IMG/VR virus record: IMGVR_UViG_3300012630_000124
Coordinates: 1 to 7,111 of that record
DNA: 7,111 nt
Reading direction: 5' to 3' (one strand)
Origin: a virus
Shown here: piece by piece, positions 1,239 through 7,111 of the stretch
How positions within the stretch are numbered: the stretch's first letter is position 1
Layout: each line of letters starts with the position of its first letter
Position numbers and translations under genes: made by a program
Notes under the pieces: model-generated
The model's database searches: none
The model's input: the letters and a program-made list of their open reading frames with translations, nothing else
Told to the model about the DNA's origin: nothing

Positions 1239-1622
1239 TTATGAAACTAAGCGCAGTTTTAAAAGCGCTGGGTTGAGGTTGTATTGCTGAGAAAGCGGTA
1301 AAGGTTCGACAAAATCAGCAGGGACTTGCTTCGAGAAATCGACGTTAATCATCTTGATAAACGGAACGACGTTTGACTGGTCGCCAGTCAAATTCATTAG
1401 TTGAGCCAGTGATAAACCAGCGTCGGTAAAATCATGCGTATAGCGGGACCAAGTGTTGCGAGGGTAGTTCGCTTTGGTACGTTCGTAGCCGTCGGTCATG
1501 ATGTTTCTATAAACACCATAGAGGCGGTTTGCTTTTGGATAACTAATTTTGCCGGAATCCGAAACACGGAAAAATTTAGCTTTAAGAGAATTTAAAACAG
1601 ATTCTTTGTCATACGTGTTCAT
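1239..1622 (-). CDS. gX: Candidate nested gene X: in-frame internal start giving the C-terminal 127 aa of pII
   Basis: Met296 (ATG at 1622-1620) sits in FEGATM-NTYD, which matches the Met that starts pX in M13 (FEGDSM-NIYD). An SD-like GAAGGTG lies 5-6 nt upstream. Confidence 0.5.
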   Translation of the reverse strand: MNTYDKESVLNSLKAKFFRVSDSGKISYPKANRLYGVYRNIMTDGYERTKANYPRNTWSRYTHDFTDAGLSLAQLMNLTGDQSNVVPFIKMINVDFSKQVPADFVEPLPLSQQYNLNPALLKLRLVS

Positions 1623-2507
1623 TGTTGCACCTTCAAAAGACTTGAAAACGTCTTTAAATGCTAAACCCCATAGGGTCGGAATTATTTGCGGATTGTCTAT
1701 CTGTAATTGTGGATCTGTGATTAAGCCAAGCGTTGCAGGCAAGCCGCGTTGAGAGAACCAATCTCGATAAATACGAGCCTCAAAACGAACGGCACCAGTG
1801 GCAAATAGCCTAACTTCTGGTCTAGTAATTTCTGCCAATTGGCGTCGGAAATGCTCATACTTGGTTTGAGCATATTTGCGGGTAAGCTTGTTAATTTGCG
1901 AATCGAGTTCAACGAGTTTTAAGTAAACTTTCTTAACGCAAACTTCAGATCCTTTATTGAAATACAAAGTGGTTTTGTATTCTTCATCGTACCAAGGGCG
2001 GGTTTGACCTATCTTGATGTTACGCATCAAATCTAAGCATTGTTGCGCTTGCTGTTGGTTCGGAACATGGGCGGTATAGGTCACATCTAAGTAATCAACT
2101 ACACCATGCTCCCAGTCTAAAAATTCTGTGAGATTGTGATCCCCAAAACAGAACGCCTCGACTACGGCCATGATGCAGAGGTTGAGATTGTCTGAACCGT
2201 AAACGTTGTGACCCTGTAAAAGCTTTGCAGGATTACCAACAATTTTAATGTAAGGAATACGCTTGAAATCTGTGCCGTTGATTATCTTAAAAGCTAAAGA
2301 AGCAAACGAAGAAGGCAGAGATTCGAACTTGTGGAATAACTGCGTAAAAGTAAACTTTTGGTTTTCAGTGTCCCAAGATACACAGCCGGATAAATCAAGT
2401 CCAAAGCGCTCCATTAATGTCCGGTCATCAATAAAGCAAGCACCAGAAGCACTTTCAACATAGTGCTTGCGTAAAAATGGGATGCTGATGGAAACCATAT
2501 CAATCAT
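1239..2507 (-). CDS. gII: Rolling-circle replication initiator (nickase), homologue of Ff gene II protein, 422 aa
   Basis: Motifs match M13 gpII as recalled: MIDM N-terminus; FESLPSSFASLAFKI (M13 FESLPTHYSGIAFKI); NPAKLLQGHNVYG (SPAKVLQGHNVFG); VRFEARI; FEGATMNTYD (FEGDSMNIYD); DSGKISYPKANRLYGVYR (PSGKTSFAKASRYFGFYR); PRNTWSRY; QLMNL...NVVPFIKMINVDFS. ATGA overlap with the upstream 77-aa ORF. Confidence 0.93.
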   Translation of the reverse strand: MIDMVSISIPFLRKHYVESASGACFIDDRTLMERFGLDLSGCVSWDTENQKFTFTQLFHKFESLPSSFASLAFKIINGTDFKRIPYIKIVGNPAKLLQGHNVYGSDNLNLCIMAVVEAFCFGDHNLTEFLDWEHGVVDYLDVTYTAHVPNQQQAQQCLDLMRNIKIGQTRPWYDEEYKTTLYFNKGSEVCVKKVYLKLVELDSQINKLTRKYAQTKYEHFRRQLAEITRPEVRLFATGAVRFEARIYRDWFSQRGLPATLGLITDPQLQIDNPQIIPTLWGLAFKDVFKSFEGATMNTYDKESVLNSLKAKFFRVSDSGKISYPKANRLYGVYRNIMTDGYERTKANYPRNTWSRYTHDFTDAGLSLAQLMNLTGDQSNVVPFIKMINVDFSKQVPADFVEPLPLSQQYNLNPALLKLRLVS

Positions 2508-2737: not shown

Positions 2738-3153
2738 GAACGAACCTCAGTAAATTCAACCAAGTTGCACAGCCAATCGCCAACAGCTGGAGAGAAAACC
2801 GAAGGATTAGCGCAGCCTTTGCTAACATCTAAATCATCCTTGCCACATACTGGGCAAGGAAGCTGACAACGCTCAGCGGAGCGGCTAACTTCGTTTGCCC
2901 GAGCGCTGTCAACTAAATCAACAACGATAAAAGAAAGGCCGTTTGATTGAAGTTGGTTTTCTATCGTTGATTTAAACTTGGATTGAGCAACTTGAATTTT
3001 TGCCGGAACAATTTTCTTGGCGTTAGCACCCAGAATTTCAAAGTTCGCGTATAGTGTCCATTGCTCGAAAATTGCGCGTACAGGTTCACGAGTTAACGTG
3101 AGTAAAATGCCAGCATTGGCAGCCTGTAAGGCTTTGATTGTGTTCATATCCAT
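2734..3153 (-). CDS. Hypothetical protein, 139 aa, with a Cys-rich C-terminal part (CQLPCPVCG...C...C); first gene downstream of the operator region
   Basis: Strong SD AGGAG lies 9 nt upstream of the ATG at 3153. ATGA overlap with the next ORF. No family recognised. Confidence 0.65.
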   Translation of the reverse strand: MDMNTIKALQAANAGILLTLTREPVRAIFEQWTLYANFEILGANAKKIVPAKIQVAQSKFKSTIENQLQSNGLSFIVVDLVDSARANEVSRSAERCQLPCPVCGKDDLDVSKGCANPSVFSPAVGDWLCNLVEFTEVRS

Positions 3154-3192
3154 GAGAAGCCGCTCCTGATATACTTTTTATAAAAACAAAGT

Positions 3193-3210
3193 GTATCCAA
3201 AATTGGATAC
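3193..3210. promoter_or_regulatory. Operator-like perfect 18-bp palindrome GTATCCAAAATTGGATAC
   Basis: Read directly. It lies in the 104-bp divergent intergenic region and shares the GTATCCA/TGGATAC half-sites with the second palindrome. Confidence 0.7.
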
Positions 3211-3220
3211 GGAATGAAAT

Positions 3221-3238
3221 GTATCCATAGTTGGATAC
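3221..3238. promoter_or_regulatory. Operator-like 18-bp palindrome GTATCCATAGTTGGATAC (7-bp arms)
   Basis: Read directly. Its centre is 28 bp from the first palindrome, and it lies 20 bp upstream of the repressor-like gene ATG. Confidence 0.7.
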
Positions 3239-3257
3239 AAAGTCAAGGGCGTTACGT

Positions 3258-3620
3258 ATGAATTTCAGCAACAAGCTAATTGACCAATACAAAGAATTTA
3301 TAAAAGCGAAATCAGATGCAGCAGCAGCAGCTGAGCTGCCACACATGACCAGAATGAATGTGAGCGCAATCAGAAAAGGTGAAAGAAGACTTACAGAAGA
3401 ACAAGCAGTATTTATTGCTGAAGCTTGCGCGCTCGACGTCGCACTAGTGCTTGTCGAACTAGCAGCTGAATCAGCCAAAAGCGAAAAAGCACAATCAGCA
3501 TGGAACGCATTAGCAAAAAAGCTTAAAGCCGCTTCAAGCTTATTGCTTTTGGCGGCTTTTCTTAGTATTTCAGGCACTTCAGGCTTAAATCAAAGCCAAC
3601 GCATCAAATATAGCCCATAA
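3258..3620 (+). CDS. HTH (Cro/CI/XRE-like) transcriptional repressor candidate, 120 aa, with a hydrophobic C-terminal segment
   Basis: It is the only plus-strand gene and is divergent from the replication/structural operon, like rstR in CTXphi or Pf4r. ATG at 3258 with AAGGG 8 nt upstream. The HTH-like stretch is SDAAAAAELPHMTRMNVSAIRKGERRLTEEQAVFIAEACALD. Confidence 0.75.
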   Translation: MNFSNKLIDQYKEFIKAKSDAAAAAELPHMTRMNVSAIRKGERRLTEEQAVFIAEACALDVALVLVELAAESAKSEKAQSAWNALAKKLKAASSLLLLAAFLSISGTSGLNQSQRIKYSP

Positions 3621-3639
3621 TGTGATTATTACGTTAAAT
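3610..3639. other. dif-like candidate XerC/XerD recombination site (possible attP)
   Basis: ATAGCCCATAA-TGTGATTA-TTACGTTAAAT. The right arm matches the conserved XerD arm TTATGTTAAAT at 10/11. The left arm ends in the conserved (G)C-CATAA of XerC arms. The spacer is 8 nt (dif has 6, cer has 8). No integrase gene is present. Confidence 0.4.
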
Positions 3640-3708
3640 AACAATAACTTAGTGAAAGCTTATTGGCTAAATATAGAGCAACAGCAAAAAAACAGCAACC
3701 CTTGAAAG

Positions 3709-3750
3709 TGTTCCAAAATGGAACAAGGTCCGGCTATTACTGTGCCGGAC
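3709..3750 (-). other. Plus-strand (viral-strand) origin of rolling-circle replication, f1-like core
   Basis: The minus strand reads AGTCCGGCacagtaataGCCGGACcttGTTCCATTTTGGAACA. The f1 ori core is AGTCCACgttctttaataGTGGACtcttGTTCCAAACTGGAACA. Both have a hairpin with a TAATA loop followed by the CTTGTTCCA...TGGAACA palindrome. An AT-rich stretch follows, like f1 domain B. Confidence 0.75.
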
Positions 3751-3793
3751 TACGGCAAGTAACTCAAAAACACGTGCGAAATAGATAAGTTAT

Positions 3794-3815
3794 AAAAAAA
3801 GCCCTTTCGGGCTTT
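3794..3815. terminator. Bidirectional intrinsic terminator hairpin AAAAAAAGCCCTTTCGGGCTTT
   Basis: The GCCC/GGGC stem (extendable to AAAGCCC/GGGCTTT) is flanked by A7 on one side and TTT on the other. On the minus strand it reads hairpin plus TTTTTTT, which would end the gI-ORF69 transcript. On the plus strand it is the first hairpin with trailing Ts after the repressor-like gene. Confidence 0.6.
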
Positions 3816-3828
3816 AGTTTGGCAGAGG

Positions 3829-3844
3829 GAAGCCCAAGGGCTTC
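3829..3844 (-). other. GC-rich stem-loop GAAGCCC-AA-GGGCTTC (candidate packaging signal or minus-strand origin element)
   Basis: Palindrome read directly, in the non-coding region downstream of the last morphogenesis-operon gene. Confidence 0.35.
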
Positions 3845-3869
3845 AAAAGAGTTACGCTCCGCTCCCATC

Positions 3870-3887
3870 AAGGGGCTAACGCCCCTT
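3870..3887 (-). other. GC-rich stem-loop AAGGGGC-TAAC-GCCCCTT (candidate packaging signal or minus-strand origin element)
   Basis: 7-bp stem with a 4-nt loop, read directly, 16 nt downstream of the ORF69 stop. Confidence 0.35.
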
Positions 3888-3902
3888 AATAATCCCCAGA
3901 AG

Positions 3903-4123: not shown

Positions 4124-5359
4124 TTATGTTTTATCTTGTGGGAGAGGCGCAACGGCCGCGATCGATTGCGAAGATTCAGAATGTACGTAATGAGGGCGAC
4201 ATTTTACAAGCTTACTTTCATTTTTAAAAGTTATCGTTGCAGCACATGGGGCAAGATAAGTAACTTTGTAACCCAAATCAGTAGGATAAAAAGACCCATC
4301 ATCAGATTCAAAACAAAAATCCGCATGTGATTTACCAGTTGAGACAGTGCAAGTTATAACAACACTTTCTAAGGTTGACTCAAAATCAGATAGATTTGTT
4401 TGCTGATTTGATTGTTGCTCATCAACTTCATTTACTGGTGCTGGGGCCTGTGATGTCGGATTGGCAGTTGTTAGTTGCTGAGGTTCTTCAGCTTGGGAGA
4501 AATAGTACCAAGCAAAAAAGCAAAGGACAGCAGCGGGAAGTTGCCATCCAAATTTTAAAAGAGGATTTACTTTTTTTGGTACTGGTTGTTTTGCTGGCTC
4601 TATTTTCTGAGGTTCTTTTTTATCGAAGTAGTTAGCGGGCAAAACGGTAAACGATGCCCGCATGTCTATTTGCTTACCGTACTTATTAATAAATGTGTCT
4701 AAGATGAATTGCTGGCTAGTCTTATAGGCCGGATGCAATTCATAACATTTAAAAAACTCAGTCTTAGATAAATGATGACGATCCTTCTTTTTCCCGTTGT
4801 AAACATTAAGAACGTGAAAGCCATAAGGAGCAGTAATCTTAATAATTGGATTAATAAATAGATTCAAAATCTTTCCGAGAATCGGAGAGCTAAAAAGATT
4901 TTTACCGCTTCGACAATGCCAAATTTCCTGCAGAAGTGTTTCGCGCAATTGTTTGTCGACTGCATCAACATCTTGAGATAAAAGCCAAACCCGCCACCCA
5001 AGCTTACGAGATTGCACGAACCAAGATACAACGGCCAAGCGATCTTTATCATTCCATGAGCGAGAGTTAAACGAAGTTAAAAGTTCATCAATGACAATAA
5101 GACCAAAACGGCTTTCGTCGTAAGTGTCTGGGTTGTCTGGGTCTAATTCCGGATAAGCTTTTCCAAGCAATTCCAAATCAATAGAACGAGGAATATCAGG
5201 CAAACGAGTAATATAAGATTTCGCGTTAGGTGCTAAAACATCCGGCTTAATGTCCAAATTAGTAGCAACACGCAAACCCAATTGCAGATAAGTTTTAATT
5301 TCTCTAACCGCGATTTTTGACTTGCCGGAGCCGCGAACACCTTCAACGAAAATTGCCAT
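4124..5359 (-). CDS. gI: Assembly ATPase pI / Zot-family protein, 411 aa
   Basis: Walker A GVRGSGKS. VATNLDI; YDESRFGLIVIDE; NSRSWNDKDRLAVVSWFVQSRKLGWRVWLLSQDVDAVDKQ versus M13 pI NTRSWNDKERQPIIDWFLHARKLGWDIIFLVQDLSIVDKQ (from memory). TM segment WQLPAAVLCFFAWYYF. The C-terminus GYKVTYLAPC...KLVKC resembles M13 GYSLTYIDLC...EIVKC. TAATG overlap with gVI. Confidence 0.93.
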   Translation of the reverse strand: MAIFVEGVRGSGKSKIAVREIKTYLQLGLRVATNLDIKPDVLAPNAKSYITRLPDIPRSIDLELLGKAYPELDPDNPDTYDESRFGLIVIDELLTSFNSRSWNDKDRLAVVSWFVQSRKLGWRVWLLSQDVDAVDKQLRETLLQEIWHCRSGKNLFSSPILGKILNLFINPIIKITAPYGFHVLNVYNGKKKDRHHLSKTEFFKCYELHPAYKTSQQFILDTFINKYGKQIDMRASFTVLPANYFDKKEPQKIEPAKQPVPKKVNPLLKFGWQLPAAVLCFFAWYYFSQAEEPQQLTTANPTSQAPAPVNEVDEQQSNQQTNLSDFESTLESVVITCTVSTGKSHADFCFESDDGSFYPTDLGYKVTYLAPCAATITFKNESKLVKCRPHYVHSESSQSIAAVAPLPQDKT

Positions 5360-5682
5360 TATTTAGTGGTTACCTTAATTTTCAGCGCACGCTGATGGAA
5401 AGTAAAAAGCGCTGAAAGCGCATAGGCCGATGAAATAGCAGATATACAGACAGAAGCATTTGGCGGAACTAAAGAAAGACCCGCAGCTAAAAAACCGTTA
5501 CTAGGTGCGCTGGTTGCCAAAGATGAAAAAAGCTCTGTAAAACCAGTGGCTAAAGCAGTAACAGCAGCTACATAAACACCAATATAAATAACTGCTAAGC
5601 CTAGCCGCTGAGCGGCAAAGGCTACAAAGATACGAAAAAATGAAGTTAGACCAGTGACAATAAACGTAAGAAAAGCAGCCAT
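5359..5682 (-). CDS. gVI: pVI-like minor coat/termination protein, 107 aa, multi-pass hydrophobic
   Basis: It lies between gIII and gI with TAATG overlaps at both ends. It is strongly hydrophobic. LSLVPPNASVCISAISSAYALSALFTF resembles M13 pVI LILPSNALPCFYVILSVKAAIFIF (from memory). Confidence 0.8.
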   Translation of the reverse strand: MAAFLTFIVTGLTSFFRIFVAFAAQRLGLAVIYIGVYVAAVTALATGFTELFSSLATSAPSNGFLAAGLSLVPPNASVCISAISSAYALSALFTFHQRALKIKVTTK

Positions 5683-7111
5683 TATGGGGTTACCTCAAGT
5701 GTGCGATGGAAGATACGGAAACAAAGTAACAGCGTGTAAATTGATAAAAGCCAACTCACAACAGGTTGACCCCAATCATTATAAGGGGGGCAATGTTGGT
5801 CAACAGTGATGGTTTTTGGCTCACCTCGAATAGATACAGAGAGATTAAAACCGCGACAGCCACCACTAGTTGGTAAGGTTACAAAATCCAAAAGCTTTGG
5901 TTGACCGTTAAAATTAGGTAACGGTGATTCGATGAAATCAGTAAGTTTTTGGTGCTCTTGGGTGAGCTTATCAACTTCAGTTTGTACACTCTGACCTTGC
6001 ACGGCCTGATTTCCCCAGCTGTTATTTGAAGCCTCATATTGAGATTTGGTTAGACCGGGGAATTTAGACCAATCAATAGGAGTTTCTTCTTTTGGTGGTG
6101 CGTCAGGTGTAATAGTTTGATTAGTGTATAAATCAACAAAGGTACTGCCTTCGTGCCAGTTGTTAATCTGGACTAATAAATTAGGCATCATTTCTGCTGG
6201 TACATAATTAGGGGCGTTTGGGTTGGTATGCTGCACAGTACCAGTAGCAATAGCTTCAGCAGCATCAGCAAAAGAGGGGCTAACAGGGTCAAAAGTCGGA
6301 TTATCAAATAAATCCGGATAAGGTGCGCCAGTCTCCCAATCAACAAAATCATCTAGACCAATATCAGCATCAATCAAAGGATTAGGGTTTTTTGCATATT
6401 GTTCATTTAGCCAAGTCTCATCAATCGCAGAAACTCGTATGTTATTAGTTGGCCGGAAGCACGAATGAGCATTATTAATGAATAAAGGGCCATTGGTGTA
6501 ATCTGGATTTGCATCCGGTGGACAAATAAAACCTTCTTGATTTTGACCAAGCCCAACAGAACCAGCGACAAACTGAGTGCCAACAGAAGGCGCGGAAGTA
6601 TTACAAACAGGCTGACCAGATGAATTAGCAAAACAAGTAGTTTGGACAGCAGTAGAGACAATTTTATAACCGATAGTGGCACTAGATAAATTAATAGTAT
6701 TAATGGACTCAAACGAGCGATTAATAGTGAGCGTGATATTGGGTGCCATTTCAATATTTTCAGAAGCTTTAGGCAATTGAATTTGTGAAGATACGGATTC
6801 AGAGGCTTTAGAAACACAATCAGCGAACGTAGTACCAGTGAAAGCGCCTAAGTGAGTATCAGAAGGATAATAAGCATTACAAGTAACGAAAGTTTGCGGT
6901 TTAGCGGGGACATGATCAGTAAAATCTATTTCACCTGGTTGCGATGCATCTTCAGTATCAAAGCACAGAGAAGTAAACAATTGAGAAGTACAATTTGCCT
7001 CATAAGCACCATAAGCAATCAAAGCAGCTTTACCAGCTGGAGTCATATTAGCGGCACGCTGACCAAGGGAAGACAAAGCGCGTAAAAAATTAGGCTTAGC
7101 CATCCGCACAG
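5682..7111 (-). CDS. gIII: Main body of the pIII-like adsorption/minor coat protein. The ORF-track start at 7109 is an artefact of linearisation.
   Basis: This is the largest ORF and sits immediately after the major coat gene and terminator, as gIII does in Ff. It has several Cys pairs. The C-terminal hydrophobic anchor VVSWLLSIYTLLLCFRIF is preceded by C...C, like the pIII C-domain. Its stop overlaps the gVI start (TAATG at 5684-5680). Confidence 0.85.
   Translation of the reverse strand, partial: VRMAKPNFLRALSSLGQRAANMTPAGKAALIAYGAYEANCTSQLFTSLCFDTEDASQPGEIDFTDHVPAKPQTFVTCNAYYPSDTHLGAFTGTTFADCVSKASESVSSQIQLPKASENIEMAPNITLTINRSFESINTINLSSATIGYKIVSTAVQTTCFANSSGQPVCNTSAPSVGTQFVAGSVGLGQNQEGFICPPDANPDYTNGPLFINNAHSCFRPTNNIRVSAIDETWLNEQYAKNPNPLIDADIGLDDFVDWETGAPYPDLFDNPTFDPVSPSFADAAEAIATGTVQHTNPNAPNYVPAEMMPNLLVQINNWHEGSTFVDLYTNQTITPDAPPKEETPIDWSKFPGLTKSQYEASNNSWGNQAVQGQSVQTEVDKLTQEHQKLTDFIESPLPNFNGQPKLLDFVTLPTSGGCRGFNLSVSIRGEPKTITVDQHCPPYNDWGQPVVSWLLSIYTLLLCFRIFHRTLEVTP
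7057..7111. repeat. Second copy of the 55-nt terminal redundancy (duplicate of 1-55)
   Basis: Identical to 1-55. 55 is a common de Bruijn assembler k-mer length. Confidence 0.95.

Follow-up and report, generated by a model that had tools for sequence, protein, structure and literature searches.

A predicted viral-strand origin with the f1/M13 layout in a previously undescribed clade of temperate inoviruses

Genome context and the initiator protein

The stretch of DNA analysed here, called the window throughout, has 7111 nt and represents a complete, circularly permuted inovirus (filamentous phage) genome of about 7.1 kb. It closes into a circle, because the prophage L013 is colinear with it across both of its ends. 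The minus strand carries every recognisable phage gene except the regulator, including all structural genes, in the order 475-aa ORF, pVI-like gene, gI/Zot, 69-aa ORF, intergenic region, two small ORFs, gII, gV-like gene and coat-like gene (Table 1). A further minus-strand ORF of 163 aa (3086-3577) is probably spurious, since it overlaps the plus-strand regulator gene.

The phage is a member of a previously undescribed temperate inovirus clade of aquatic Gammaproteobacteria, whose prophages were located in an Alteromonadaceae MAG (L012), in a Gammaproteobacteria MAG (L013) and in Rheinheimera tilapiae (L014). By megablast, the whole window gave no nucleotide-level match among 50,697 deposited phage records; the intergenic region returned only short matches at chance level in a sensitive blastn search, and nothing at E <= 1 in Rfam.

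The clear homology to pII claimed in the earlier note is borne out by the product of gene II, a 422-aa protein that matches both Phage_CRI and G2P_X_C and aligns end to end with the pII of Ff and IKe in an alignment of 11 pII proteins. The window residue Tyr195 (codon 1925-1923) corresponds to the catalytic Tyr197 of M13 and is invariant in the 11 homologues, within a Y-L/M-K motif; the QGHNV motif is invariant too. The nearest deposited pII proteins, those of Ff, IKe, Erwinia PEar and several saliva inoviruses, share no more than 35-37% identity with that of the window (about 35% for Ff and 37% for IKe), against 60% between IKe and M13. Within the same alignment Met296 (codon 1622-1620), the counterpart of the pX start Met300 in M13, is also invariant, and it probably serves as the start of a pX-like protein of 127 aa, since its codon is preceded by the ribosome-binding sequence AAGGTG (window 1620-1634, minus).

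The integration site lies close to the intergenic region. In the prophages L012 (6835-6861 and 14006-14036) and L006 (74-100 and 7855-7884), homology to the window starts and stops within the dif-like attP sequence. At the left junction (attL) the sequence is ATTTAACATAATATACATTATGGGCTA, which looks like a canonical dif and has a centre of 6 nt; in the phage site the arms are separated by 8 nt. Among the elements that exploit Xer, a VGJphi-like kind with a single, double-stranded site has been described (PMC4246890), and judging from these junctions the window phage looks like an integrative phage of that VGJphi type. The prophage order is attL, regulator (on the reverse strand), orf139, [orf77], gII ... 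gI, orf69, terminator, origin and attR, which places the predicted origin about 100 nt from the right end. The regulator stop codon (3618-3620) falls within the putative XerC arm of attP, and two operator-like palindromes, GTATCCAAcTATGGATAC and GTATCCAATTTTGGATAC (3193-3238), lie between the regulator and the ATG (3153) of the 139-aa ORF.

Table 1. Features of the window that bear on the predicted origin, with positions numbered from its first letter
Feature	Positions	Strand	Evidence or remark
475-aa ORF	5682-7109	minus	occupies the gIII position
pVI-like gene	5359-5682	minus	
gI/Zot	4124-5359	minus	Pfam 4.8e-16
Upstream hairpin GGGGCGTTAGCCCC with flanks	3867-3890		upstream of the terminator; kept in most relatives; candidate packaging signal or minus-strand origin
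Upstream hairpin GAAGCCCTTGGGCTTC	3829-3844		upstream of the terminator; kept in most relatives; candidate packaging signal or minus-strand origin
Intrinsic terminator AAAGCCCGAAAGGGCTTTTTTT	3791-3815	minus	end of the gI-orf69 operon, shortly before the predicted origin; kept in relatives
Predicted nick-site hairpin	3728-3750	minus	inverted repeat; DNA fold; M13 nick; stem covariation (L049 and the family)
28-nt core GTCCGGCACAGTAATAGCCGGACCTTGT	3723-3750	minus	same in every relative having the region
Palindrome TGTTCCA-ttt-TGGAACA	3709-3725	minus	predicted pII-dimer binding site; symmetric variation and covariation
A/T-rich spacer, 68 nt	3641-3708	minus	between core and attP; where f1 domain B would be
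dif-like attP ATTTAACGTAA-TAATCACA-TTATGGGCTAT	3610-3639	minus	palindrome about 70 nt upstream; L012 and L006 prophage junctions fall inside it
HTH transcriptional regulator	3258-3620	plus	phrog_638 3.5e-24; only gene on the plus strand
Gene II, 422-aa pII-family initiator	1239-2507	minus	Pfam Phage_CRI 1.3e-43 and G2P_X_C 3.1e-14; phrog_702 1.8e-80

Anatomy of the core and its counterparts in M13 and IKe

The site is non-coding; the terminator (3815-3791) lies on one side of it and the regulator gene, ending at 3620, on the other. Its minus strand reads exactly as had been described from the letters alone: a 7-bp hairpin with TAATA at the end of its loop, then CTT and a palindrome. The 5' arm GTCCGGC (3750-3744) and the 3' arm GCCGGAC (3734-3728) enclose a 9-nt loop, ACAGTAATA (acagtaata, 3743-3735); C3727 and T3726 separate the hairpin from the palindrome, in which TGTTCCA (3725-3719) and TGGAACA (3715-3709) flank the spacer ttt. 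When a 61-nt segment was folded as single-stranded DNA, two hairpins were obtained, as in M13 and IKe, with z = -4.8.

In M13 (NC_003287) the corresponding stretch, 5766-5809, reads GAGTCCAC gttctttaata GTGGACTC TTGTTCCAAACTGGAACA, its tail being T-TGTTCCA-aac-TGGAACA. In IKe (NC_002014) positions 6556-6599 read GAGTCCAC tatgtttaata GTGGACTC T TGTTGCA ttt TGCAAC, and the record annotates the two equivalent stem-loops (6554-6599) as 'viral-strand origin'. The protein gIIp nicks M13 between 5780T and 5781A, with Tyr197 joined to the 5' end, and its footprint spans 5774-5813; the recognition sequence for nicking in f1 starts only 4 nt 5' of the nick, at M13 5777, and the origin is divided into domain A, the core (5769-5819), and domain B (5820 to about 5910) (PMC5405960). 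The window palindrome corresponds to M13 5793-5809 and therefore falls within this footprint.

From TAATAG onwards the window and M13 align without a gap, both having TAATAG, 6 nt and CTTGTTCCA, so that the distance from the nick to the binding repeat is conserved; the distance from TAATAG to CTTGT is likewise an identical 6 nt. Other features of Ff domain A are also present in the window: a hairpin loop whose last bases, T^AATA, adjoin the 3' arm, a palindrome with 7-bp arms, a 3-nt spacer and the half-site TGTTCCA, a non-coding position, the viral coding-sense strand, and a pII with the catalytic Tyr. With the viral-strand origin of IKe the window shares the two-hairpin layout and a T-rich palindrome spacer (TTTT in IKe), although IKe has the half-site TGTTGCA, together with an Ff stem and loop. 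The differences from Ff are equally definite. The stem is GTCCGGC in the window and GAGTCCAC in Ff, the loop has 9 nt against 11 nt, and the predicted nick is preceded by CAGT where f1 has CTTT. Unlike that of Ff, the predicted origin of the window is not directly upstream of gII, because attP, the divergent regulator gene and two small ORFs intervene, and the phage, unlike Ff, is temperate and without a pIV secretin gene.

The earlier note had called the element nearly superimposable on the f1 origin core. Every piece that it listed as shared (AGTCC, TAATAG, GGAC, CTTGTTCCA and TGGAACA) is found in the M13 record, but that wording is an overstatement. The f1 stem, given there as 6 bp, has 8 bp in the M13 record, and the similarity in AGTCC and GGAC is offset by one position in a structure-based register, since the window loop is 2 nt shorter. 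The exact match of TGTTCCA to the f1 half-site is probably a coincidence within a constrained motif, TGT-NNN-A, because TGTCCCA or TGTTTCA stands at this place in close relatives of the window and because IKe, whose pII is closer to that of f1, has TGTTGCA. Dulem 57 and L014 both carry the half-site TGTTTCA despite their distant pII proteins.

Downstream of its core, f1 has domain B, an A/T-rich replication enhancer of roughly 100 bp with IHF sites. In the window, the spacer 3708-3641 is conserved among the closest relatives only, and no similarity to f1 domain B was detected in it. Matches to the IHF consensus occur in the window at chance level (14 against 12.7 expected), and the sole one nearby (3639-3651, 1 mismatch) overlaps just the attP-proximal end of the spacer. 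The sequence TTTCAAGG at 3707-3700 is a weak candidate for a third (delta) repeat.

Similarity, conservation and covariation among relatives

The comparison of the f1 alignment with shuffled controls, proposed earlier as a check, came out in favour of the resemblance. A Smith-Waterman search of the whole window with the 62-nt M13 core placed the best minus-strand match exactly at 3739-3709, with a score of 30 against 21.4 +/- 2.2 in dinucleotide shuffles; this score beats 198 of the 200 shuffles and is reached by the other 2 (~p = 0.01). By alignment alone the similarity to f1 is thus significant but modest. The plus-strand palindrome matches M13 better still (17/18), so that the orientation is fixed only by the hairpin and TAATAG.

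Stronger tests came from other phages. The layout was located in eight reference phages, namely M13, IKe, Inovirus D_HF5_61, Dulem 52, Dulem 57, Pseudomonas 97-1, blackswan219-1 and Acinetobacter M02, and the spacing pattern derived from them, TAATRG-N6-YTWGT, has this site as its single occurrence in the window, against an expectation of 0.03. For the pattern together with a 7-bp stem and a palindrome the joint expectation is about 6e-9 per window. A covariance model, R1, built from the eight reference phages only, gave its best window match at 3735-3701 on the minus strand (20 bits, E about 4e-4). The score was contributed by CTTGT together with the palindrome and the flank beyond it; the local alignment skipped the nick hairpin of the window, owing to its different stem and to its loop, which is shorter by 2 nt. 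R1 also picks the orthologous site in L003, L012, L013, L014 and L049.

In other phages R1 pointed to a candidate origin in phage I2-2 (L025 2664-2721), alike in layout and different in sequence, with the loop gtatgTAATA; to another in Dulem virus 65 (L022 1929-1987), which reads GGCACACC-gctatctaat-GGTGTGCC followed by GTCCCAAATTCGGGAC; and to a weak one in Dulem 62. The pII of Erwinia phage PEar6 (L015, MT901800) gave a tblastn match of the same span, identity and bit score as that of IKe. A hairpin scan, alignment with the IKe, M13 and Dulem 57 cores and the covariance model found no Ff-type origin in the 6608-nt PEar6 record, and none was found in If1.

Relatives of the window were recovered by searching viral, metagenomic and genomic collections with the pII protein. 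The 28-nt core GTCCGGCACAGTAATAGCCGGACCTTGT is present in exactly one copy, on the gII strand, in all 8 related genomes or prophages having the region: L005, L006 and L012 (pII 97-98% identical to that of the window), L013 (90%), L003/L008 and L007 (80%) and L014 (76%). In the intergenic alignment this core stands out as an invariant block between flanks that diverge on both sides. In L014, a 42-nt island formed by the core and the palindrome (95% identical) is the sole nucleotide similarity to the window outside gII.

The palindrome varies where the core does not, and its half-sites change symmetrically: GTTCCA/TGGAAC in the window, GTTTCA/TGAAAC in L014 and, imperfectly, GTCCCA/TGGGGC in L003. 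Over 12 phages, 93% of the cells are paired, three positions show 3-4 pair types each, and the covariation score was reached by none of 500 shuffles.

Since the core is invariant within the close clade, covariation supports the stem only at the level of L049 and of more distant phages. L049 (IMGVR_UViG_3300025116_000027), with a pII 54% identical, has the origin GAGTGCAC-acagtaata-GTGCACTC-TTGTTTCAAAATGAAAC, in which the loop is the same as in the window and 6 of the 8 stem pairs are altered on both sides relative to L003. Its gene order resembles that of the window, running gI, terminator, origin ... attP, regulator, gII. In the uncultivated pII inoviruses L049, Dulem virus 57 and Inovirus D_HF5_61 alike, the stems differ from that of the window and are fully compensated; no origin annotation was found in these three records. 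When 12 origins were tabulated by structure, Watson-Crick pairing held throughout (12/12) at stem pairs 3-8, and five of these positions showed two pair types. The table was made by hand, because MAFFT, owing to the 2-nt shorter loop, put the 5' arm of the window clade out of structural register; the automatic pair counts refer to the eight reference phages for the hairpin, which is 98% paired in them, and to all 12 phages for the palindrome.

A degenerate scan of IMG/VR with CACAGTAATAG-N6-CTTGT returned 26 loci, of which 24 were chance matches with no stem; the only real origins among them were L030, on the same contig as L003, and L049. In L053 and L054 (pII about 54-55% identical) the origin was not found in the stretches examined, and it probably lies outside them or the contigs are incomplete. 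Taken over all phages compared, a layout like that of the window is present in at least 10 other pII phages. On these comparisons the layout is a family trait of pII-type inoviruses, of which the window is a clear instance.

Function, predicted nick and alternative readings

Positions 3750-3709 of the minus strand very probably constitute the core of a plus-strand (viral-strand) origin that resembles domain A of f1/M13. The proposal of an Ff-type plus-strand origin made in the earlier note is sustained by a cognate pII encoded on the same strand, a non-coding site, an invariant core, two covarying helices and the R1 match, and the comparative data in relatives are the decisive evidence for this assignment. 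The minus strand had also been named as the viral strand, and the computational evidence agrees, as it carries gII and all structural genes; the orientation of the predicted origin would accordingly fix it as the packaged strand. The cut had been placed in ACAGT^AATAG between 3739 and 3738, and mapping of M13 5780T/5781A onto the window leads to the same T3739^A3738. A nick at exactly this bond is likely, if a little less assured than the origin itself: the exact cut could be displaced, because CAGT, where f1 has CTTT, falls within the stretch recognised by gIIp, which begins at M13 5777.

By analogy with f1, pII would bind the palindrome TGTTCCA-ttt-TGGAACA and the adjoining CTTGT on the double-stranded, supercoiled replicative form, and would distort or open the neighbouring GC-rich inverted repeat. 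It would then cut the viral (minus) strand in the loop, at T3739^A3738, with Tyr195 becoming linked to the 5' end, and the free 3'-OH would prime rolling-circle synthesis by host enzymes, including the host polymerase. Once a round is complete, the hairpin and nick site, restored on the displaced strand, would be cut and resealed to yield a circular single strand. The left arm of the stem covaries with the right arm even though recognition in f1 starts 4 nt 5' of the nick, which suggests that the stem matters beyond initial recognition; judging from f1, this further role is most likely termination.

Two other functions for the element appear very unlikely, to a similar degree. In one, the palindrome would be an operator for the HTH regulator and the GC hairpin a transcriptional or structural element, with no origin at the site. 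The regulator gene is only about 90 nt off, and the genome does hold palindromes of similar form, GTATCCA-N4-TGGATAC, at 3238-3193; these, however, have another sequence and belong to the divergent promoter region. The combination of hairpin, TAATA, CTTGT and palindrome recurs, moreover, with unrelated regulatory modules, including those of the lytic phages Ff and IKe, and the absence of a T-run from the hairpin and the real terminator 50 nt upstream speak against a terminator role. In the other, the hairpins would be a minus-strand origin or a packaging signal of the viral strand, which would suit a segment that folds so well as single-stranded DNA and recalls the several such hairpins held by Ff intergenic regions. 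The loop T^AATAG and its fixed spacing to CTTGT nevertheless match plus-strand origin hairpins specifically, and the conserved hairpins further upstream (3890-3867 and 3844-3829) are better candidates for those roles.

Still less credible is that the element forms part of the Xer integration site, for instance as a folded attP like that of CTXphi. The dif-like attP is indeed close by, but the prophage junctions put the crossover within 3639-3610, with the entire origin core retained in the prophage, at the right end, and L049 has about 1.8 kb between its origin and attP. A functionless chance resemblance, which the f1 alignment taken alone might have allowed, is the least probable reading and is already refuted by the comparative data, given the joint expectation, a core perfectly conserved between diverged flanks and the covariation of both helices.

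A viral-strand origin of the Ff type, the preferred reading, is what would be expected in a pII-encoding inovirus, and the concept of phage replication is unchanged. What is gained is a precise prediction of origin and nick site for an uncharacterised temperate inovirus clade of aquatic Gammaproteobacteria. The Ff layout, with its T^AATA loop hairpin, CTTGT and a variable palindrome, persists down to roughly 30-35% pII identity. It could serve the annotation of origins in metagenomic inoviruses and the design of phagemid-type vectors for new hosts.

A more speculative extension, considered rather doubtful as a whole, is that the origin is modular, combining a frozen nick module with a specificity code in the palindrome, and that pII acting on a prophage leads either to run-out replication or to production from tandem copies. 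The 28 nt are identical despite differences of up to 24% among the pII proteins, a constancy suggesting that the stem and loop are recognised base by base. The fast-evolving, covarying palindrome may in turn be a replicon-specificity code, by which related phages sharing a host would be kept from driving one another's replication. The same logic, in which a conserved hairpin at the nick adjoins an inverted repeat that varies and determines initiator specificity, is found in the double-strand origins of rolling-circle plasmids of the pT181 family and in the CTXphi/RstA origin, whose initiators are unrelated (Rep_trans) and whose nick sequences differ from that of the window. Given the position of the origin, about 100 nt from the right end of a dif-integrated prophage, pII made from a single prophage could start a rolling circle that runs out through attR into the adjacent host DNA; alternatively, phage DNA could be produced from tandem copies without excision, as in CTXphi.

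Two observations concern the integration site in relatives. The longer stretch between origin and attP in L049 (6826-8306 and 1-319), about 1.8 kb against about 70 nt in the window, may hold inserted cargo. In Rheinheimera tilapiae, L014 has a dif-like site at 7137-7163 followed by phage-like sequence, about 840 nt upstream of gII, and the strand of this site is opposite to that expected from L012.
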